Source: an uncultured Candidatus Saccharibacteria bacterium
GTDB taxonomy: Bacteria > Patescibacteriota > Minisyncoccia > Phycocordibacterales > UBA5272
Direction of reading: 5' to 3'
Assembly: GCA_964546555.1 (NCBI GenBank)
Contig: CAZJJX010000002.1
Span: 16,263-80,262, forward strand
Length of the DNA: 64,000 bases
This document shows positions 8,391 to 48,173 of the stretch, in pieces. Position 1 is the stretch's first letter; each line of letters starts with the position of its first letter. Made by a program: the position numbers and the translations under genes. The notes beneath the pieces are model-generated. The model was not told the origin of the DNA. It ran no database searches and saw only the letters and a program-made list of their open reading frames with translations.

Positions 8391-9245
8391 CTAGTATTCT
8401 CGTAAATTATAATCGAATCGATGTTGGTAGAGTGCTGCCCAAAGACGAATATACATAATGCGATACCCTTCACTACTTGGGTGTAATCCATCGTGTGAGA
8501 AAAAATTAGATGGACACGTTTCACCAGGAAGAAAAACAGGGACTGCCTGTATGCCATAAATCTCAGCGGTTCTTAGATAGATTTCGTTAATGATTCTAGT
8601 TCTTCTTGTGATAAGCCATCGAATAAAAAACGGGAACACAGGTGCGGAGATGTCATTATTATAAATAATAAGTACAATGTTTTTACCGCTTAATGTCATA
8701 GTACGAGAAATCACTTCACGAAGATTTTGTTCAACAGAAGCAAGGGGAGTCATTTTCCACGTATCATTTCCACCTGAACTTATAATTGTTAAATTGTAAT
8801 GCTTGCCTTCTGCGCGCTTTAGCTGTGTAAGCATATTTGATGTTGTTGATCCATTAACGGCATAGTTATGAATTGCAACATCAGGGAAGTCGTGTGCAAA
8901 TCTTCCTGCAAGGGTATCCTCTATTGTTCGGGCACCTGTACCGTATCCGGTACTATCTCCTAGGATAAGAACATTACGACTGCTACTAGAGTTTATATCT
9001 CTAGGTCTTTCTCCTTGTTGTTTAGCGATTTTTCTATTTGTGATGCCATTTATGATGATCATTCTCATTTGACTTGCAAACAAAAGCACAAGAATTGCAA
9101 GACCAAAATAAAGATACAATGTATGGGTGTGTGTAGTTTGGTAATATAAAATGCTTTCTACAAGATTATCTTTATCTAAAGAAGATGTAGAGAGAAAAAG
9201 TTGTGAGCCAAGAGAGGTTATGTTGTTTACGTTTGCAGTATCCAT
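8391..9245 (-). CDS. SGNH/GDSL-family hydrolase with N-terminal TM anchor (ORF extends to 9365; start at M 9245 more plausible)
   Basis: 'ILGDSTGYG' (GDS block I), 'SGGNDTW' (GxND block III), 'DGLHPSSEGY' (DxxH block V). Confidence 0.65.
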   Translation of the reverse strand: MDTANVNNITSLGSQLFLSTSSLDKDNLVESILYYQTTHTHTLYLYFGLAILVLLFASQMRMIIINGITNRKIAKQQGERPRDINSSSSRNVLILGDSTGYGTGARTIEDTLAGRFAHDFPDVAIHNYAVNGSTTSNMLTQLKRAEGKHYNLTIISSGGNDTWKMTPLASVEQNLREVISRTMTLSGKNIVLIIYNNDISAPVFPFFIRWLITRRTRIINEIYLRTAEIYGIQAVPVFLPGETCPSNFFSHDGLHPSSEGYRIMYIRLWAALYQHRFDYNLREY

Positions 9246-9379
9246 AGTGGTCTTGTTAGTATAGCGACAAATCTTCTTCTTCCATAGGGAGTATTTACGA
9301 TTGTAAGGGGTGTATGATAGTATAGAAGTGTAAGCGTTGATTGGACTAATCACCCAGGAGCTCAAGGAAGAACGTTGTC

Positions 9380-9512
9380 GAGATATTCTAGATAACTAGT
9401 AGAACCTTAATAATTAAGGGAGTCATTGCACTCTAAAGCAAGGTGGTACCACGGTTTATAAAAATCGTCCTTGAGAAAACAAGCACATTGTTTTCTTAGG
9501 GGCGATTTTTGC
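9380..9512 (+). promoter_or_regulatory. compact T-box riboswitch leader of ileS
   Basis: T-box motif 'AGCAAGGUGGUACCACGG' (9435-9454). Antiterminator: CAAGG / 7-nt bulge UGGUACC / ACGG ... UCGU-CCUUG. Mutually exclusive terminator hairpin AATCGTCCTTGAGAAAACAA...TTGTTTTCTTAGGGGCGATT + TTTTT (9462-9510). Short stem-loop with AUAA in loop (9386-9404). Confidence 0.6.
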
Positions 9513-9553: not shown

Positions 9554-12500
9554 ATGCCTCCAAAATCAATTTCAGAAAAAGAACAAGAAGTGCTCAAATT
9601 CTGGGAAGATAATCACATCTTTGAAAAGTCAGTCAATATGCCTGCAGGCGAACAAGCGCGGGGTAACTTTTCATTTTATGACGGACCACCGTTTGCAACG
9701 GGCCTACCACACTACGGACATATCTTAGCTGGAACTATTAAGGATGCAGTTCCACGTTATCAGACGATGAAAGGAAACTCTGTTCGTCGTGTGTGGGGGT
9801 GGGATTGTCATGGGCTTCCCATTGAAAATTTGATTGAAAAGAAACTTGGGCTTGCAAGTAAAAAGGATATAGAAGATTTTGGAATTGATAAGTTTAATAA
9901 TGATGCGTACCAAAGTGTGCTTCAGTATGAAGAAGAGTGGAAGGGTATTGTTCCGCGTCTTGGAAGATGGATCGATATGGAAAAACCGTATAAGACAATG
10001 GATGCATCATATACGGAAAGTATTTGGTGGGCATGGAAGTCACTCTATGAAAAAAAACTTGCATACGAAGGCAACAAGATGATGCACATTTGTCCTCGTT
10101 GTGAAACAACACTTGCCCAGAGTGAGGTAGGTATGGAGTATCACGATGTTACAGATATTTCCGTCACCGCAAAATTTGAGCTTAAAGATGAGCCGGAAAC
10201 ATTTGTTCTTGCGTGGACAACAACACCATGGACTCTCCCTGGCAATACCGCGCTTGCTATTAATATAGCAATTCCTTATGTAAAAGTGCGAGCTACAAAA
10301 AATGACGGAGTGATAGAATTTTATATTTTAGCAGAAGCAAAGTTTGCAGATTATAAGGTCTATGCAGAAAAAGATTTTAGTAATTTTGAAATAGTGGAGC
10401 AATTACAAGGAAGTGAGCTTGTTGGTAAAACATACAAACCGGTGTTTCCGTATTTTGAAAATGCTGATATAGAAAACAAAGAACATATTTGGAAAGTTTG
10501 GCATGCAGATTTTATTACAGCAGACACTGGAACTGGTATTGCTCACGAAGCTCCAGCATTTGGTGCTGAGGACATGGAACTTGCCAAGGCGCATAAGATT
10601 CCTATTATCAAGCATGTGAAAATGGATGGAACATTTACTTCATCTGTAACAGATTTTGCTGGGATGAAAGTAAAAGTAAAAGACGACACCCAGTCTGCAG
10701 ACATTGAGATTATTAAGTGGCTTGCTCATAATGGTAAGCTCTTTGAGAAGCATAAAATTATTCACTCGTATCCACTTTGTTGGCGATGTAAAACACCGCT
10801 TCTTAACTATGCAACATCGTCGTGGTTTGTGGATGTTCCGAAAATAAAGGAGAAGCTTCTTAGTGAGAACAAGCAGATTGGATGGACGCCATCTCATACC
10901 CGTGACGGACGTTTCGGTAAATGGCTTGAAGGTGCTCGTGAGTGGGCTGTGTCACGTTCAAGATACTGGGGTGCACCACTTCCTGTATGGAAGAATAGTG
11001 ATGGTAGTGAAGTAAAAGTAATTGGCTCACTCAAAGAGCTTGCAGAAGCTAATATGGTAAAGCCAAAGAATACATATTTTGCTATGCGTCATGGGGAATC
11101 TGTTTTTAATACACTTAATAAATTAGATTCACTAGGAAATAAAGATAATGTTCTTACCAAAAAAGGTGTTGGTCAAATAAAGGAAGCAATTAGTAAGCTT
11201 AAGGATCTTAAGGTTGATGTTATTATCTCTTCACCATTACCTCGTACAATAGAGAGTGCGGAGATTCTGTCAGAGGCACTTGGTATCAAGTATGAGGTTG
11301 ATGAAAACTTGCGAGAATTTAATTTTGGGGAGTACGAAAATGTCTCAGCATCAGAGTTTCATGAGATGAAAGATATTCACGAGAATCCATATAAGCGAGT
11401 TCCAGGTGGAGAGTCGTTTAAGGATGGTGCGTACAGATTCATGAAAGTTGTTGGTGCATGCGAAGAGAATTATACAAATAAAAAGATCCTCCTTGTTACT
11501 CATGGATCACATGTCTATATGGGTACTCGTGAAGCAGAATTAGTAACAGATGAGATGATGATACATGGAGGAAAAGACGGACATACAATCAATGTTAAAA
11601 ATGGAGACGTTGTTTCTTTTACTCCACACTGTGTTCCTCGAGATGAGACTGGTGCAGTTAATCTCCATCGTCCATACATTGACCAGATTGAGATGATTGA
11701 CAGTAAAGGAAATCCTATGAAGCGTATAGGGGATGTGTTTGACTGTTGGTTTGAGTCTGGGTCTATGCCGTTTGCGTCTATTCATTATCCATTTGAGAAT
11801 AAAGAAGTTTTTGATAAAAATTATCCAGCGCAGTTTATTGCGGAGGGGATGGATCAGACCAGAGGTTGGTTCTACTCGCTCATTAACCTTGGTGTTGGAT
11901 TATTTGATAAGGCACCCTATGAACATGTGATAGTAAATGGGTTAGTGCTTGCGTCTTCAGGAGTAAAGCTCTCTAAGAGTGAAAAGAATTACACTGACCC
12001 GATGGAGCTTGTAGAGAAGTATGGAGCTGATGCAATGCGTTATGCGCTTCTGTCTTCTCCTGTCGTAAAAGGTGAGAACTTACAATTTGATGATGAGAAT
12101 ATTTCTGATGTGTATAAGAAATGCATTAGTCGACTCGAAAACGTTGTAACACTCTATGAGATGAATAAGGAAGATGAGGTGCAAGCATCAACAAGTTCAA
12201 CAAACATACTCGATAGATGGATGGTTGCACGTATGCACGAGCTTGTAGAAAGCTCTACTCGTGGTTATGATCAATACTTACTCGATGACGCTACTCGAGG
12301 AATAGGAGATATCATAGATGATATATCAGTTTGGTATACACGTAGAAGTCGCGAGCGTCTTAAGGGTGATGAAGGAGAGGACGCAAAGCGCGAAGCATAC
12401 CAAACACTTACTTACACGTTACTTACACTTGCAAAAATCATGGCACCAGTGATGCCATTTATCGCCGAGCGAGTCTATAAAGCAGTTGGCGGAGAAAAGG

Positions 12501-13009
12501 AGTCGGTACATCTTGATAGTTGGCCTACAGAAAGTGCTATCGACACTGATCTCATTACTGATATGAAATTAGTTCGTGAGCTTGTATCACTTGGTCTTAT
12601 GAAGCGCACAGAGTCAAAGATAAACGTGAAGCAACCATTACTTTCAGTAACTTTTAATAGAGCTCTTGATGAAAAGTATTTCGGTCTGATAATCGATGAG
12701 CTCAATGTTAAAGAAGTAAAGATTGACGAAACCTCAATAGTCGACGTGATACTTAATACAACCATTACAGAAGAATTACAAAAAGAAGGAGATATGCGTA
12801 AGCTCATGCGTGCTATTCAGGATGCCCGAAAAGAAAAAGGACTATCTCCAAGTGATAGTGTTACTCTTATCGTTTCCTCTCTTACGCTTCTTTCAGACGA
12901 TACCCAACTTCGTGCAACCTGTAAAATATCTTCAATCAAAGAAGATGTGTCTATTGTGTCTAATCCAACAGATTTTTCTCAACACACTTTGTATTTTGGT
13001 ATTGAATAA
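9554..13009 (+). CDS. ileS: isoleucine--tRNA ligase, type 2 (eukaryote-like) with an inserted histidine-phosphatase domain
   Basis: 'FYDGPPFATGLPHYGHIL' (HIGH), CP1 editing region, 'RVGDVFDCWFESGSMP' and 'NLHRPYID' type-2 blocks, 'KLSKS' (KMSKS). Start taken at MPPKSI (ORF track 9509). Confidence 0.9.
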   Translation: MPPKSISEKEQEVLKFWEDNHIFEKSVNMPAGEQARGNFSFYDGPPFATGLPHYGHILAGTIKDAVPRYQTMKGNSVRRVWGWDCHGLPIENLIEKKLGLASKKDIEDFGIDKFNNDAYQSVLQYEEEWKGIVPRLGRWIDMEKPYKTMDASYTESIWWAWKSLYEKKLAYEGNKMMHICPRCETTLAQSEVGMEYHDVTDISVTAKFELKDEPETFVLAWTTTPWTLPGNTALAINIAIPYVKVRATKNDGVIEFYILAEAKFADYKVYAEKDFSNFEIVEQLQGSELVGKTYKPVFPYFENADIENKEHIWKVWHADFITADTGTGIAHEAPAFGAEDMELAKAHKIPIIKHVKMDGTFTSSVTDFAGMKVKVKDDTQSADIEIIKWLAHNGKLFEKHKIIHSYPLCWRCKTPLLNYATSSWFVDVPKIKEKLLSENKQIGWTPSHTRDGRFGKWLEGAREWAVSRSRYWGAPLPVWKNSDGSEVKVIGSLKELAEANMVKPKNTYFAMRHGESVFNTLNKLDSLGNKDNVLTKKGVGQIKEAISKLKDLKVDVIISSPLPRTIESAEILSEALGIKYEVDENLREFNFGEYENVSASEFHEMKDIHENPYKRVPGGESFKDGAYRFMKVVGACEENYTNKKILLVTHGSHVYMGTREAELVTDEMMIHGGKDGHTINVKNGDVVSFTPHCVPRDETGAVNLHRPYIDQIEMIDSKGNPMKRIGDVFDCWFESGSMPFASIHYPFENKEVFDKNYPAQFIAEGMDQTRGWFYSLINLGVGLFDKAPYEHVIVNGLVLASSGVKLSKSEKNYTDPMELVEKYGADAMRYALLSSPVVKGENLQFDDENISDVYKKCISRLENVVTLYEMNKEDEVQASTSSTNILDRWMVARMHELVESSTRGYDQYLLDDATRGIGDIIDDISVWYTRRSRERLKGDEGEDAKREAYQTLTYTLLTLAKIMAPVMPFIAERVYKAVGGEKESVHLDSWPTESAIDTDLITDMKLVRELVSLGLMKRTESKINVKQPLLSVTFNRALDEKYFGLIIDELNVKEVKIDETSIVDVILNTTITEELQKEGDMRKLMRAIQDARKEKGLSPSDSVTLIVSSLTLLSDDTQLRATCKISSIKEDVSIVSNPTDFSQHTLYFGIE
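11066..11560 (+). other. in-frame inserted histidine phosphatase (PGAM/branch-1) domain within IleRS
   Basis: 'YFAMRHGESVFN' (RHGE catalytic His motif), 'VIISSPLPRTIESAEIL', 'ILLVTHGSHV' (C-terminal HG). Lies between the 'WGAPLPVW...VIGSLKELAEA' and 'NLHRPYID' blocks that are ~40 aa apart in ordinary type-2 IleRS. Confidence 0.7.
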
Positions 13010-13041: not shown

Positions 13042-13596
13042 ATGGCCATCGAAAAGTATACAACCAAAGCAATAGTTCTTGAATGGTACGATCAAGGGGA
13101 GCACGATCGTGTCTTTAAAGTTTTTACACGAGAGTTCGGTCTTCTTATGTGTCACGCAAAGAGTGTTCGTAAACTAGAGAGTAAATTACGTGCGCATCTT
13201 CTACCTCGCTCGGTTAGTCTTATTACCCTTGTTCAAGGGAAGGAAGTTTGGCGACTTGTTGGTGCAGAACATGAGCATGTTGCTTCACCTTATATTCATG
13301 ATGTGGTGCAACTCCTTAAACGGTTTGTAAGAGGTGAAGGTGAACATACTTTTCTTTATGACAGGCTGACAGAGTTTCTTACGTGTAATCATGTATATGA
13401 TGAGCAAACAACGAGATTGCTGCTTTATTTTATGATGCTTACTGAGCTCGGGTATGCGGATGCAAAAGTTCTCGGAGTTACTTCTCATAAGGACTACTCT
13501 GAACTTCAAATTGAAGATCTGTATACTCATCTTCTTCTTACAAAACAGCAAGTCAGAAAGCATATTCAAGAAGTTCTGCTAGAAATGCACCTTTAG
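13042..13596 (+). CDS. recO: DNA repair protein RecO (short form)
   Basis: N-terminal OB-fold pattern 'KAIVLEWYDQGEHDRVFKVFTREFG...KSVRK..SK'; length 184 aa is short for RecO. Confidence 0.55.
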   Translation: MAIEKYTTKAIVLEWYDQGEHDRVFKVFTREFGLLMCHAKSVRKLESKLRAHLLPRSVSLITLVQGKEVWRLVGAEHEHVASPYIHDVVQLLKRFVRGEGEHTFLYDRLTEFLTCNHVYDEQTTRLLLYFMMLTELGYADAKVLGVTSHKDYSELQIEDLYTHLLLTKQQVRKHIQEVLLEMHL

Positions 13597-13634: not shown

Positions 13635-15515
13635 ATGGATCAACTGCCAAAACCTAGCACCACAGATGACAATCTTCATGCAATAGATTCGATAGAGCAC
13701 GAGCTCTACAATCCAAATGTGCACGCACATCAAGCAGAGACACATCGTGTAAAAACTCACAGATCACTTAACCTCCCTCAGTCGTGGGGAGAAGAGGCTC
13801 CTCTTGTTGTTAAAATAAAAGAAGAAGGCGGGTCAACCTTTGGAACAAAATTGCTTCTTATTGCGACGTTGTTTTTTTTGGTAATGCTTGGATTCTCTGC
13901 GTGGAGAGTAATGTCTGCACGTAATGTTGTATCTGCAAACAATATAGACATGACCGCAGATATGGAAGCCTTTGTTGAAGGAGGGGAACGTGCACCTCTT
14001 ACACTTCGTCTTAGAAATCGTAATCGTGCACCCCTTGAGTCTACAAACATTACACTTTCCTATAAGCAAGGAAGCGGATCGCAGGATGAACAAGAGAAAA
14101 AAATAGAAAAGAAGGACCTCGGGACTCTTGCACCAGATGCAGCACTAGCGCTTGACTACGGGGTTGTGCTTTATGGAAGTGAAGGTGAGACGCGTGACAT
14201 TACACTTAAGCTTGAATATAAGGTTGCGGGGTCTAATTCGTATTTTACAAAAACAGTACAGAAGCAAGTTATTTTGCGCTCCCCACCAATCTCTGTTGGA
14301 ATTGACGGTCCAGAAAAACTATCTCTTGGACAAAGCGGGGTATATGTTTTTACTGTTCGTAATAACTCCGCAACCTCCTCTGTTGCAAGTGTTTTACGTC
14401 TTCAGTTTCCAGAAAATTTTAAGCTAGAAAAGACTGATAGTAAACCAATAGGTCGCAGCACATCATGGAATGTCCCTAGGCTTTCAAAAGGGGATTCGTT
14501 CTCGGTGACTGTTACGGGGTCATTCAGTACAAAAGAAGGTGAGAAGAGTGCGCTCTTGGCACAGGTTGGTTTGGCTGGAGATTCACCTTCTGAAATTGGC
14601 CTTGTGTTTTCTTCTGCAAGTTATGATGTAGCAATGAGAACATCACCACTCCTTGTTGTGCAAGATTTGTCATCAGAAAGTTCTCTTAATGAATTTATAA
14701 AGTACGGTGATCGTGCGCGTGTAAAAATTACCTACACAAATAGTAGCAATGAGCCACTAGAAGATGTTTCTATAGTTCTGAAACTCTCAGGGGATGCACC
14801 TATATATGCTTCTGTTGAACCGGGGGATGGGTATTATAATTCTGTAGATAAAACCATAACATGGAATAAAGCAAATAGTCCTGATCTTGCAATCCTTGCA
14901 CCAAATGCAAATGGAACATTAAATCTTTCAATTCCAATTGTTGCAAAAGGTATAAATTCTCCCGTGCTTACACTTACAACAACGGGAGTTGCTACTGCAA
15001 AATTAACTGACGATGTAGTTACAAATGTTACAAAAACATACGGAGTCTCGGGTAGTGCGACACTTCAAGCAGGCACACAGTATAAGACTTCTTCGTTTAC
15101 AAATACTGGCCCTATTCCTCCTCGTCCGAATCAAGAAACAACCTATACAGCAAATTTAAAAGTTGTTGCACAAAATGCCATTGTTAATACTAAGGTCTCA
15201 TTTACATTACCTATCTATGTTACATGGCGTGGCGTAACTTCAGACCCTGCTGTTACCTATGATGCAAAACGAAGAACAGTCACCTGGAATATTGGTAGTC
15301 TAGATCAAGGAAAAACTGCAAGCGTAGACGTTGGACTTCTTGTGAAACCTTCACAAAGTCACGTCGGTCAATCTCCTCCGATTACTTCTGGTATTGTACT
15401 TGATGCTGACGAGGCGGTATCGAGAACTCATATAAAGAGCACGCTCTCTGCACTCACGACAGCTCTTCGTAATGAGTTGTGGCCAACTAATCCATCTATT
15501 GTTGTTGATAAGTAG
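13635..15515 (+). CDS. membrane-anchored extracellular protein with repeated beta-sandwich (CARDB/DUF11-like) modules
   Basis: Cytoplasmic N-term, TM 'LLLIATLFFLVMLGF', then repeated 'TLRLRNRNRAPLE', 'VFTVRNNSATSS', 'KITYTNSSNEPLEDVSI' modules. Confidence 0.5.
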   Translation: MDQLPKPSTTDDNLHAIDSIEHELYNPNVHAHQAETHRVKTHRSLNLPQSWGEEAPLVVKIKEEGGSTFGTKLLLIATLFFLVMLGFSAWRVMSARNVVSANNIDMTADMEAFVEGGERAPLTLRLRNRNRAPLESTNITLSYKQGSGSQDEQEKKIEKKDLGTLAPDAALALDYGVVLYGSEGETRDITLKLEYKVAGSNSYFTKTVQKQVILRSPPISVGIDGPEKLSLGQSGVYVFTVRNNSATSSVASVLRLQFPENFKLEKTDSKPIGRSTSWNVPRLSKGDSFSVTVTGSFSTKEGEKSALLAQVGLAGDSPSEIGLVFSSASYDVAMRTSPLLVVQDLSSESSLNEFIKYGDRARVKITYTNSSNEPLEDVSIVLKLSGDAPIYASVEPGDGYYNSVDKTITWNKANSPDLAILAPNANGTLNLSIPIVAKGINSPVLTLTTTGVATAKLTDDVVTNVTKTYGVSGSATLQAGTQYKTSSFTNTGPIPPRPNQETTYTANLKVVAQNAIVNTKVSFTLPIYVTWRGVTSDPAVTYDAKRRTVTWNIGSLDQGKTASVDVGLLVKPSQSHVGQSPPITSGIVLDADEAVSRTHIKSTLSALTTALRNELWPTNPSIVVDK

Positions 15516-44314: not shown

Positions 44315-44711
44315 TGGTGGAGATGGCGAGAATCGAACTCGCGTGTACTAAGGTATGAGGTATGGGTCTACTGTACGTAGTTTGCTTCATGTGTTCGCAT
44401 TCATTATTAAAAGCAAACTAAAGCAATGAATGTATAGCATGAATTATTTCAAGTATAGTGTTATGCAACACTGTGCTCTACATCTACTGTTATATTGCCA
44501 GCAGTCATCCCGTAGATGCGAACGAAAGTGACACCAGATCGGCCAGTAATTTAGGCGAATGCTGGAACTAGTCCGTTTGCCATGTATGGTGAACGGATAG
44601 CCTTACCAGTTGAGTTTGCAACATGGTCTCTCCGGTCTTTTACGAGTTGCGGAGAATTCTCGGTACAGCACATACAACATATTCTTAGTATCGATGCCAA
44701 AGATCATCCCC
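44315..44711 (-). ncRNA. ssrA: tmRNA (SsrA), ~397 nt; predicted tag (A)ANGLVPAFA
   Basis: 3' tRNA-like end 'GCGAG-TTCGATT-CTCGC-CATCTCC-A-CCA' (44315-44343); 5' 'GGGGGATGATCTTTGGCATCGATAC' pairs to give a G3:U70 acceptor stem; internal 'GCA AAC GGA CTA GTT CCA GCA TTC GCC TAA' (44551-44580); smpB 400 bp away. Confidence 0.75.
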
Positions 44712-48055: not shown

Positions 48056-48128
48056 GCATCCATAGCTCAGTTGGTAGAGCCGTCGTCTTATACACGACTG
48101 GTCCCTGGTTCGAGTCCAGGTGGATGCA
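48056..48128 (+). tRNA. tRNA-Ile, anticodon UAU (reads AUA); CCA not encoded
   Basis: Cloverleaf by hand: acceptor GCATCCA/TGGATGC, D GCTC/GAGC, anticodon stem GTCGT/ACGAC with loop CTTATAC (U33, anticodon TAT, A37), T arm CCTGG-TTCGAGT-CCAGG, discriminator A. Confidence 0.75.
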
Positions 48129-48173
48129 CTTTGGGGATAAGGTGCGAATGAAATCAAAATACGATGTAGTATA
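48117..48173 (+). repeat. 57-bp direct repeat, copy 1 (includes tRNA 3' end)
   Basis: 'CAGGTGGATGCACTTTGGGGATAAGGTGCGAATGAAATCAAAATACGATGTAGTATA'. Confidence 0.8.

Follow-up and report, generated by a model that had tools for sequence, protein, structure and literature searches.

A histidine phosphatase domain nested in CP3 of a putative type-2 isoleucyl-tRNA synthetase that recurs across Patescibacteria

The window analyzed here is a 64,000-nucleotide stretch of contig CAZJJX010000002.1 (assembly GCA_964546555.1) from an uncultured Candidatus Saccharibacteria bacterium. On its forward strand lies an unbroken reading frame that begins at position 9509 (TTG) or 9554 (ATG) and runs to 13009 with no internal stop codon or frameshift; the ATG at 9554 is the likely start of the gene, here called ileS-HP. 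The encoded protein has the body of an isoleucyl-tRNA synthetase (IleRS) within which a histidine phosphatase (HP) domain resides. The features of the locus are listed below, with the CP domain boundaries drawn after PMC7955072 and PMC7191050 and residue conservation given for a close and a deep sample of homologues (n = 120 each).

9330..9508 (+): tentative candidate for a T-box-like leader with terminator hairpin, upstream of ileS
9554..13009 (+): complete ileS-HP gene, putative type-2 IleRS with nested histidine phosphatase (1151 aa plus stop)
9554..11059 (+): IleRS N-terminal part, aa 1-502 (query 7-502 aligned to fungal IleRS 11-494), comprising the first Rossmann half, CP core, CP1 editing domain, CP2 and the first half of CP3 (beta-beta-alpha)
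9710..9721 (+): HIGH motif HYGH, aa 53-56
11060..11656 (+): inserted branch-1 histidine phosphatase domain with its linkers, aa 503-701 (~199 aa)
11087..11095 (+): RHG motif, with R512, nucleophile H513 and G514 (R and H in 120/120 of both samples)
11243..11245 (+): R564, second phosphate-pocket arginine, SPxxR motif (120/120 in both samples)
11315..11317 (+): E588, presumed proton donor (close sample 120/120; deep sample 119/120, with one Asp)
11501..11503 (+): H650, second catalytic histidine, THG motif (120/120 in both samples)
11657..13006 (+): IleRS C-terminal part, aa 702-1151 (query 702-1069 aligned to fungal IleRS 498-885), comprising the second half of CP3 (NLHRPYID), the second Rossmann half, the anticodon-binding domain and the type-2 C-terminal domains (DUF5915)
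11966..11980 (+): KLSKS (KMSKS motif), aa 805-809

The synthetase portion appears complete. Pfam models matched to the full protein include tRNA-synt_1, in two stretches (1.2e-129), Anticodon_1 and DUF5915, and the NCBIfam model TIGR00392 (ileS) scores 834.3 bits against an equivalog cut-off of 621.4, the insertion notwithstanding. The class I signatures are kept, with H53, G55, K805, S807, K808 and S809 invariant among 120 homologues, and the CP1 editing motifs WTTTPWTLP (221-229) and GTGIAHEAPAFGAED, the latter of the GTGxVHxxPxxGxxD type, are likewise present and invariant or nearly so. The best matches in the PDB are the fungal cytoplasmic IleRS and P. megaterium IleRS2 (E ~1e-204 to 1e-205), while S. 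aureus IleRS1 matches at 2.7e-82. By these matches and by its DUF5915-type C-terminus, the protein belongs to type 2 (eukaryote-like) rather than type 1. It is not a member of the mupirocin-resistance families MupA and MupB (NF000257 and NF000258), against which it scores 657 and 687 bits (cut-off 1900).

Upstream of the gene, the Rfam T-box model matches positions 9330-9475 below threshold, with 32.9 bits (gathering score 93) and E = 6.3e-6 for 271 nt searched. This segment includes GGUGGUACCACGG, and a 20-bp hairpin with a U-run occupies 9462-9508; the fold z-score is -4.9. If it is real, such a leader would be consistent with regulation of the gene as a genuine IleRS. The synteny of ileS with ArgRS and MetRS indicates a housekeeping locus, and the neighbourhoods of 43 such loci display housekeeping synteny only, with no conserved kinase, toxin or phospho-metabolic partner. 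The gene product is most likely the housekeeping type-2 IleRS of this organism.

The HP domain is located within CP3, between its first and second helices. Query residues 502 and 702 correspond to residues 494 and 498 of the fungal structures 8wnd and 7d5c; the flanks of the insertion point are thus just 3 residues apart in fungal IleRS, which corrects a first-pass annotation that had put the spacing of the surrounding blocks in type-2 enzymes at ~40 aa. The extent proposed in that annotation (11066-11560) covers only the Pfam core; the full insert spans aa 503-701 (nt 11060-11656, ~199 aa). The motifs that it quoted were all located, namely WGAPLPVW (472-479), RHGES (512-516), LLVTHG (646-651), NLHRPYID (703-710) and KLSKS; SSPLPRTIESAE lies at 559-570, and a sequence quoted as beginning RVGD in fact reads RIGDVFDCWFESGSMP. 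In S. cerevisiae IleRS, CP3 spans residues 459-526 (PMC7955072), and the topology of this subdomain varies between Candida, Thermus and S. aureus IleRS (PMC7191050). The linker joining CP2 to CP3, just upstream of the insertion site, helps to form the pocket for reveromycin A, which the abstract of the same study places in the tRNA-Ile binding site (PMC7955072).

The insert is a complete, compact HP fold of the PhoE, GpgP and PspA type. His_Phos_1 (PF00300) matches aa 510-656 with E = 1.4e-30, scoring 106.9 bits within the full protein and 111.3 for the insert on its own (cut-off 21.7); with the unbroken frame and a KMSKS motif that follows normally, this bears out the original claim of an in-frame PGAM-like phosphatase inside a type-2 IleRS. 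The domain shows the alpha/beta fold of branch-1 HPs and a full catalytic core, consisting of the nucleophile His, two Arg, a second His and an acidic proton donor, in which the only substitution across the close and deep samples is the single Asp at E588. Its structural neighbours are phosphatases of 200 aa, whereas mutases of 230-250 aa align over more columns at higher rmsd. A cofactor-dependent phosphoglycerate mutase (dPGM) can be rejected on domain size and on model scores (TIGR01258, 30.3 bits against 81.7; NF038349, 79.8 against 225). The models for CobC (TIGR03162, 81.5 against a cut-off of 162.9), PspA (NF045917, 55.3 against 350) and SixA (TIGR00249, 20.9 against 74.5) also fall short, so that no equivalog model assigns the insert to a substrate-specific family, and the substrates of its fold neighbours are diverse. 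In an AF2 model of the full-length protein built with 64 homologues, the HP insert is predicted confidently, with the synthetase core at pLDDT <50 and an overall pTM of 0.51.

The same architecture is common to hundreds of Patescibacteria IleRS and is not confined to this genome. PF00300 is present in 120/120 of the best matches listed for the query (63-73% identity) and in 120/120 of those listed for P0144, a very divergent member (40-69% identity), whose matches carry source names that include Nealsonbacteria, Campbellbacteria, Sungiibacteriota and Minisyncoccia. All 240 listed homologues, with host identity down to ~40%, hold exactly one HP copy at the CP3 site and none shows fission or loss of the domain, although each list comprises the best 120 matches of its query, in which HP-bearing proteins score higher, a bias against HP-less relatives. 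An exhaustive search returned 49 matches of at least 500 aa; in 46 of these the HP lies between the N- and C-terminal halves of an IleRS, and these halves are 32-70% identical to those of the query. HP-bearing IleRS occur in 59 GTDB species genomes, all Patescibacteria, and in the sampled sequences the insert is restricted to this group. The domain was probably inserted once, early, in a lineage of the Parcubacteria/Paceibacteria type and inherited vertically thereafter.

This recurrence bears directly on whether the insert could be an assembly chimera, a separate gene joined by a frameshift, or a selfish element of the intein-like or homing kind. CP3 is a variable, permissive site (PMC7191050), a few ValRS relatives hold other extra domains, such as the endonuclease-like PF04480, and the GC content of the insert is a little lower than that of its host (0.35-0.39 versus 0.38-0.44), all of which such an origin would accommodate; the GC comparison does not, however, amount to a compositional anomaly. 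Against it, the in-frame architecture is repeated across hundreds of independent assemblies, from NCBI, JGI, ENA and Logan, with intact reading frames in 43/43 long loci. The insert is nearly constant in length (195-203 aa), its catalytic residues are strongly constrained and it co-diverges with its host (Spearman 0.68), changing ~1.3 times faster (p-distance ratio 1.28). An intein or homing insertion is further disfavoured by the junctions, K-P-K-N-T-Y and V-P-R-D-E-T-G-A-V-N-L-H, which carry no splicing residues, that is, no conserved Cys, Ser or Thr at the N-junction and no His-Asn followed by Cys, Ser or Thr at the C-junction. An artefactual or selfish origin is thus highly improbable and effectively refuted, in agreement with the first-pass view of a genuine insertion.

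The reading that we consider somewhat better than even is that of a bifunctional protein, a housekeeping IleRS with a complete, independently folding and presumably active branch-1 HP nested in CP3. The synthetase would charge and edit tRNA-Ile as normal, and the HP module would act as a phosphomonoesterase through the usual HP mechanism: His513 would attack the phosphorus to give a phospho-histidine intermediate, the phosphate being held by Arg512, Arg564 and His650, and Glu588 would protonate the leaving group. The class Ia synthetase may serve mainly as an essential, permanently expressed scaffold, with the HP at its most plastic surface subdomain. The insert is acidic (net charge -8.9, pI 5.5, as against pI 7.1 for its short, mostly free-standing relatives), is a compact phosphatase of generalist type, and its substrate-lid region is poorly conserved. 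For these reasons, a small phosphorylated metabolite or nucleotide is favoured as the probable substrate over RNA, and the acidic charge likewise weakens the notion that the insert is an RNA-binding module. HP enzymes hydrolyze phosphomonoesters, which makes Ap4A and PPi, two substrates floated at the outset, chemically unlikely; a mupirocin-like inhibitor and mischarged substrates, also raised there, are speculative targets.

A comparable arrangement exists in the ValRS of other CPR lineages, source-labelled Gracilibacteria and Peregrinibacteria, in which one to three (possibly four) HP domains occupy the homologous CP3 site. The HP domains of the two synthetases are only distantly related, with a median best score of 73 bits across the groups and of 216 and 301 bits within them; that domains so far apart sit at equivalent CP3 tips suggests that each synthetase captured its own independently. 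No donor lineage is drawn from the HP nearest-neighbour analysis, because short contigs contribute IleRS-HP fragments to its "free-standing" class. Some IleRS also possess two HP copies, the extra one lying in tandem with the first or at another site adjoining the KMSKS region.

These parallels raise the alternative that the HP is functionally coupled to the synthetase, dephosphorylating something that blocks aminoacylation as a built-in repair or antitoxin activity, which on balance seems unlikely. Toxins of the toxSAS class, such as CapRel and FaRel2, pyrophosphorylate the tRNA 3′ end, and HipA-type kinases phosphorylate other aaRS; as targets of a coupled HP, a tRNA 3′-terminal phosphate or pyrophosphate (from toxSAS or RNA damage) and a phosphorylated synthetase residue are each doubtful. 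The apparent independent capture at the CP3 tip of both enzymes favours such coupling, as do the restriction of the multi-domain hosts of this HP subfamily, all of them IleRS or ValRS among the top 150 representatives, and the retention of additional copies within the synthetase. The single copy seen throughout the 240 listed IleRS, with no case of fission or loss among them, and the conserved linkers, in which N506 and P695 are invariant or nearly so, point the same way, and the insert lies just downstream of the CP2-CP3 linker that lines part of the reveromycin A pocket (PMC7955072).

Several features weigh against coupling all the same. A domain with a net charge of about -9 is poorly suited to binding RNA, and we know of no HP enzyme that acts on RNA 3′ ends. 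In ValRS the domain is patchily distributed, with 46/121 close ValRS lacking it, and some copies have lost the equivalents of Glu588 or His650; arrays of 3-4 tandem copies are moreover hard to reconcile with action in cis on one bound tRNA. The housekeeping-only neighbourhoods, too, provide no toxin, kinase or other partner. It is quite improbable that the nested HP represents a dedicated quality-control or repair activity of CPR class Ia synthetases that clears a blocking phosphate or pyrophosphate from the tRNA 3′ end, or the phosphate of a modified synthetase residue, for instance following the action of toxins that pyrophosphorylate tRNA or phosphorylate aaRS. There is similarly slim likelihood that it constitutes a second "editing-like" hydrolytic site, which IleRS and ValRS would each have gained at this CP3 position in two or more separate events.

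Conceivably, the HP could instead of turning over a substrate serve as a ligand sensor or regulator, adjusting aminoacylation to the metabolic state of the cell on binding a phospho-metabolite, or it could be purely structural; neither is likely, nor is the variant in which sensing involves a long-lived phospho-His state, as in dPGM. In favour of this view, the CP3 insertion directly follows the linker of the reveromycin A pocket, assigned to the tRNA-Ile site in PMC7955072, and the conservation of the insert's own linkers suggests a fixed orientation. Yet the nucleophile His, the two Arg, the second His and the Glu are conserved over very deep divergence, as catalysis predicts, whereas the Glu is unneeded for binding alone and a structural role would preserve none of the catalytic set.

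The aaRS are among the most studied enzymes, and domain additions to those of eukaryotes are well known; to our knowledge, a second catalytic domain nested in the catalytic body of a bacterial synthetase is rare. In the literature that could be searched, no IleRS or other aaRS is described as linked to an HP or PGAM domain, in keeping with the first-pass remark that none was known, and HP-bearing IleRS go unmentioned in a survey of 96,219 IleRS sequences, in the AARS Online paper and in a paper on domain insertions. In public databases such proteins go by no names other than "isoleucine--tRNA ligase" and "class I tRNA ligase family protein", leaving the presumed second activity invisible in present annotation. 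An apparently active HP has been kept within IleRS over a very large part of Patescibacteria, whose genomes are minimal, so that retained sequence likely matters, and the ValRS of other CPR lineages provide a parallel, more dynamic version. Should its substrate prove to be tRNA or the synthetase itself, the HP would amount to a new tier of quality control in translation or of resistance to toxins; a metabolic enzyme carried on an essential gene would instead exemplify genome-economy domain nesting and point to a strongly selected phosphatase function in CPR physiology. The insert may in addition serve as a lineage marker for Patescibacteria, and the tolerance of CP3 for a 200-aa enzyme may help engineering.

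IleRS2 enzymes (the S. cerevisiae and Candida cytoplasmic IleRS, 7d5c and 8wnd, and that of Priestia megaterium, 8c8u) align with the query end to end and share with it the HIGH, KMSKS and CP1 editing motifs, the anticodon-binding domain and the type-2 C-terminal domains, but have a 3-residue linker inside CP3 where the query holds ~199 aa; a catalytic domain at this site is known from no solved or described IleRS. The compact branch-1 HPs PhoE (1h2e, 1ebb), Rv2419c (4pz9, 6s2q), PspA (4ij5) and HFP (9mmh) are 21-27% identical to the insert and are free-standing, whereas the query's domain is nested within another enzyme. Rv2419c is a glucosyl-3-phosphoglycerate phosphatase, PspA a phosphoserine phosphatase and HFP an enzyme of the riboflavin pathway; their specificities are not transferable to the insert because no equivalog model reaches its cut-off.

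The top NCBIfam model for the insert, NF005567 (bifunctional RNase H / acid phosphatase, Rv2228c type), matches at 85.7 bits; the aligned stretch, positions 178-337 of its 378, makes up the HP half of the profile. It offers another case of a similar HP domain joined to a nucleic-acid enzyme. That union is nonetheless a terminal fusion rather than a nested one, and the insert falls far under the cut-off of 326 and lacks the RNase H half. With the family NF040702 (ileS_w_GNAT) there is already a precedent for an additional enzyme domain in IleRS, although its extra domain is of another type, GNAT, and the query is not a member (282 bits against a cut-off of 1999); judging from the profile coordinates, the extra length of NF040702 probably lies in the CP1 region rather than in CP3. 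Finally, the CP1 editing domain, CP2, CP3 and the leucine-specific domain of LeuRS share with the insert a design in which a hydrolytic or accessory module enters the Rossmann fold via two adjacent linkers. Those class Ia modules are synthetase-specific and act on aminoacyl-adenylate or aminoacyl-tRNA, whereas the insert described here has a generic phosphomonoesterase fold with free-standing relatives.

The open reading frame encoding IleRS-HP, the isoleucyl-tRNA synthetase with a nested histidine phosphatase (HP) domain, is uninterrupted and specifies 1151 amino acids when read from its ATG codon.

9509 (TTG) or 9554 (ATG) to 13009, plus strand: ileS-HP open reading frame
11060-11656, plus strand: HP insert with linkers (aa 503-701), delimited by alignment to fungal IleRS

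Class I tRNA-synt_1 is matched in two separate stretches (1.2e-129), accompanied by Anticodon_1 and DUF5915, and the score for the NCBIfam ileS equivalog model TIGR00392 is 834 bits (cut-off 621). Both HxGH and KLSKS are preserved among 120 close homologues, and both motifs of the CP1 editing subdomain, WTTTPWTLP and GTGIAHEAPAFGAED, are likewise conserved. In sequence, the protein is far nearer to solved type-2 enzymes (fungal cytoplasmic IleRS and P. megaterium IleRS2, E of ~1e-204 to 1e-205) than to S. aureus IleRS1 (2.7e-82). The host synthetase thus looks fully functional.

In the alignment to solved fungal IleRS (8wnd/7d5c), residues 7-502 correspond to 11-494 and residues 702-1069 to 498-885, such that ~199 amino acids stand in place of a 3-residue linker. 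GC content displays no sharp break across the insert. Because CP3 of ScIleRS spans residues 459-526 (PMC7955072), the insertion point, between 494 and 498, lies in the middle of this connective subdomain, past its beta-beta-alpha part. The CP2-3 linker (453-465) contributes to the reveromycin A pocket of ScIleRS (PMC7955072), and the abstract of that study places the compound in the tRNA-Ile binding site. CP3 is the IleRS subdomain with the greatest plasticity, adopting a beta-beta-alpha-alpha fold in Candida, a Zn-binding beta-alpha-alpha-beta-beta fold in Thermus and three helices in S. aureus (PMC7191050).

The first-pass annotation, which proposed an in-frame PGAM-like phosphatase within a type-2 IleRS, is borne out by a His_Phos_1 (PF00300) match at aa 510-656 (E=1.4e-30; 106.9 bits versus a cut-off of 21.7). 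The motifs it quoted are all present apart from one letter, as its 'RVGD' was a misreading of RIGD. R512, H513, S560, R564, E588, G592, G619, E620, H650 and G651 are invariant among the 120 close homologues. Across 120 sequences sampled more deeply (host p-distance <=0.7), R512, H513, S560, R564, G619, R628 and H650 are retained in every member, and E588 and E620 in 119 each. Mean column conservation is 0.63 in the HP domain versus 0.84-0.86 in the synthetase core, and the predicted catalytic machinery is under strong purifying selection. Modeled alone with AF2, the insert yields a pLDDT of 92.2 and a pTM of 0.89; in the full-length model it retains a pLDDT of 88-95, with an unreliable core and a whole-model pTM of 0.51. 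The nearest solved protein by sequence is PhoE (E=1.4e-10). None of the substrate-specific NCBIfam models (dPGM, CobC, PspA, SixA, RNase H/acid phosphatase) reaches its cut-off. The insert can be placed among branch 1 phosphatases of the compact type, with no assigned substrate. It is apparently a complete and competent histidine phosphatase, and the module would hydrolyse a phosphomonoester by way of phospho-His513.

The same arrangement is found far beyond this genome. PF00300 and IleRS domains occur together in all 120 best matches of the query (63-73% identical; NCBI, JGI, ENA and Logan assemblies), with inserts of 195-203 amino acids throughout. Scanning a single genome for each GTDB species with a sequence pattern recovered 59 loci, every one from Patescibacteria by record title (Paceibacterota, Parcubacteria, Nomurabacteria, Yanofskybacteria and TPA MAGs labelled Saccharibacteria). 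In an exhaustive phmmer run over 1.84 billion cluster representatives, queried with just the insert, 49 of the top 150 matches were proteins of at least 500 amino acids. Forty-six are complete or fragmentary IleRS ordered N-half, HP, C-half, with host halves just 32-70% identical to the query. When the most divergent of these, P0144, was used as a new query, PF00300 was present in all 120 best matches, down to 40% identity, with source names that include Nealsonbacteria, Campbellbacteria, Sungiibacteriota and Minisyncoccia. Exactly one HP copy was counted in each of the 240 IleRS among the matches listed, these being the best 120 per search, in which HP-bearing proteins score higher and room is left for occasional loss.

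Identical architecture in listed IleRS from independent assemblies, together with the uninterrupted reading frame, establishes that the insert is genuine, and no intein motifs were found at its junctions; that it is an artefact or a selfish element is effectively excluded. Pairwise distances of insert and host are correlated (Spearman 0.68, Pearson 0.74), the insert evolving 1.28x faster, and this correlation fits a single old insertion passed on vertically. These comparisons mark it as an ancient insertion that is fixed across a large clade of Patescibacteria.

The remaining three large phmmer matches are ValRS, with one (P0246), two (P0235) and three to four (P0121) HP copies. A search with P0235 returned many more ValRS-HP proteins, with Gracilibacteria and Peregrinibacteria as source names; among 121 ValRS, HP copies number zero in 46, one in 63, two in 10 and three in 2. 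Taken together, the ValRS-HP proteins reach lengths of up to 1626 amino acids. Forms with and without the domain are interleaved among close relatives, as exemplified by P0283, which lacks it (76% identical, best local alignment). Residues 477 to 664 of the ValRS relative P0272 match 421 to 439 of T. thermophilus ValRS, between WGHxIPxW and DTWFSS, a site that is by alignment homologous to the CP3 site of IleRS. HP domains of ValRS and IleRS score a median best of 73 bits against each other and ~70 bits against other HP proteins (within-group medians, 216 and 301 bits). The two groups are no closer to each other than to other HP proteins, which suggests independent captures or a very ancient divergence. 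A few ValRS relatives also contain other Pfam domains (P0305, P0336, P0316), namely PF04480 (DUF559, endonuclease-like) and PF00216 (HU DNA-binding). Additional copies exist in IleRS, either in tandem at CP3 (P0125, P0127, P0131, P0140) or between the KMSKS region and the anticodon-binding domain (P0128, P0147, P0234, P0142). Complete two-HP IleRS keep the catalytic residues in both copies, and in some ValRS copies the equivalent of the Glu or of the second His has been lost.

The protein is a functional-looking type-2 IleRS with a complete HP domain nested within it, and would be bifunctional, synthetase plus phosphatase. A small metabolite or nucleotide seems the likelier substrate, given that the domain has an acidic surface, a fold of generalist type and a variable lid region, that ValRS can carry copies in tandem and that many ValRS lack an insert. 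Mean net charge is -8.9 and pI 5.5 (mean pI 7.1 for short, mostly free-standing relatives), which argues against a general RNA-binding surface. Real weight must also be given to a function coupled to the synthetase: HP domains, though only distantly related, sit at one shared site in the paralogous IleRS and ValRS, these are the sole large hosts found (at least 500 amino acids, top 150 phmmer matches), the linkers are conserved, and no insert loss was seen among the 240 listed IleRS. A non-catalytic role as a sensor is a lesser rival.

The locus is a housekeeping one, with the gene order ThyA, Tmk, ArgRS, GDSL hydrolase (opposite strand), IleRS-HP, RecO-like, 626-aa protein, AI-2E transporter, MetRS, HD protein and TatD.

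8391-9365, minus strand: GDSL/SGNH hydrolase gene, between ArgRS and IleRS
9330-9508, plus strand: candidate divergent T-box-type leader, upstream of ileS
13042-13596, plus strand: RecO-like protein (184 aa; RecO_N domain match only), directly downstream of ileS
13635-15515, plus strand: 626-aa protein without a significant Pfam family, downstream of the RecO-like gene
44315-44711, minus strand: tmRNA gene (RF00023, 86.5 bits, full length)
48056-48129, plus strand: tRNA-Ile, anticodon UAU, the sole tRNA gene of the window

The order ArgRS, IleRS-HP, RecO-like, 620-aa, AI-2E, MetRS is retained in 35-41 of 43 related loci, with the RecO-like and 626-aa genes each in position in 41; hydrolase relatives are absent from the gene families shared among these loci. 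The UAU anticodon is unusual, as AUA is read in most bacteria by a lysidine-modified CAU tRNA. The leader, which contains GGUGGUACCACGG, is likely a divergent T-box. Its Rfam match is sub-threshold (32.9 bits, gathering score 93; E=6.3e-6 for 271 nt searched). It has a fold z-score of -4.9, and the match is followed by a 20-bp terminator-like hairpin and U-run 46 nt ahead of the ATG at 9554, a placement that favours this start over the TTG. If it is a true T-box, the gene would be regulated as a genuine IleRS.

Full-text literature searches found no report of a histidine phosphatase or PGAM domain combined with IleRS or another aminoacyl-tRNA synthetase, and the combination goes unmentioned in a 2026 survey of 96,219 IleRS sequences and in the paper on the AARS Online domain catalogue. 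Databases name these proteins only 'isoleucine--tRNA ligase' or 'class I tRNA ligase family protein' (e.g., UniRef100_A0A7T5RIT7). The novelty lies in the combination of two well-known families, with a precedent in the NCBIfam family ileS_w_GNAT, in which a different enzyme is nested in IleRS.
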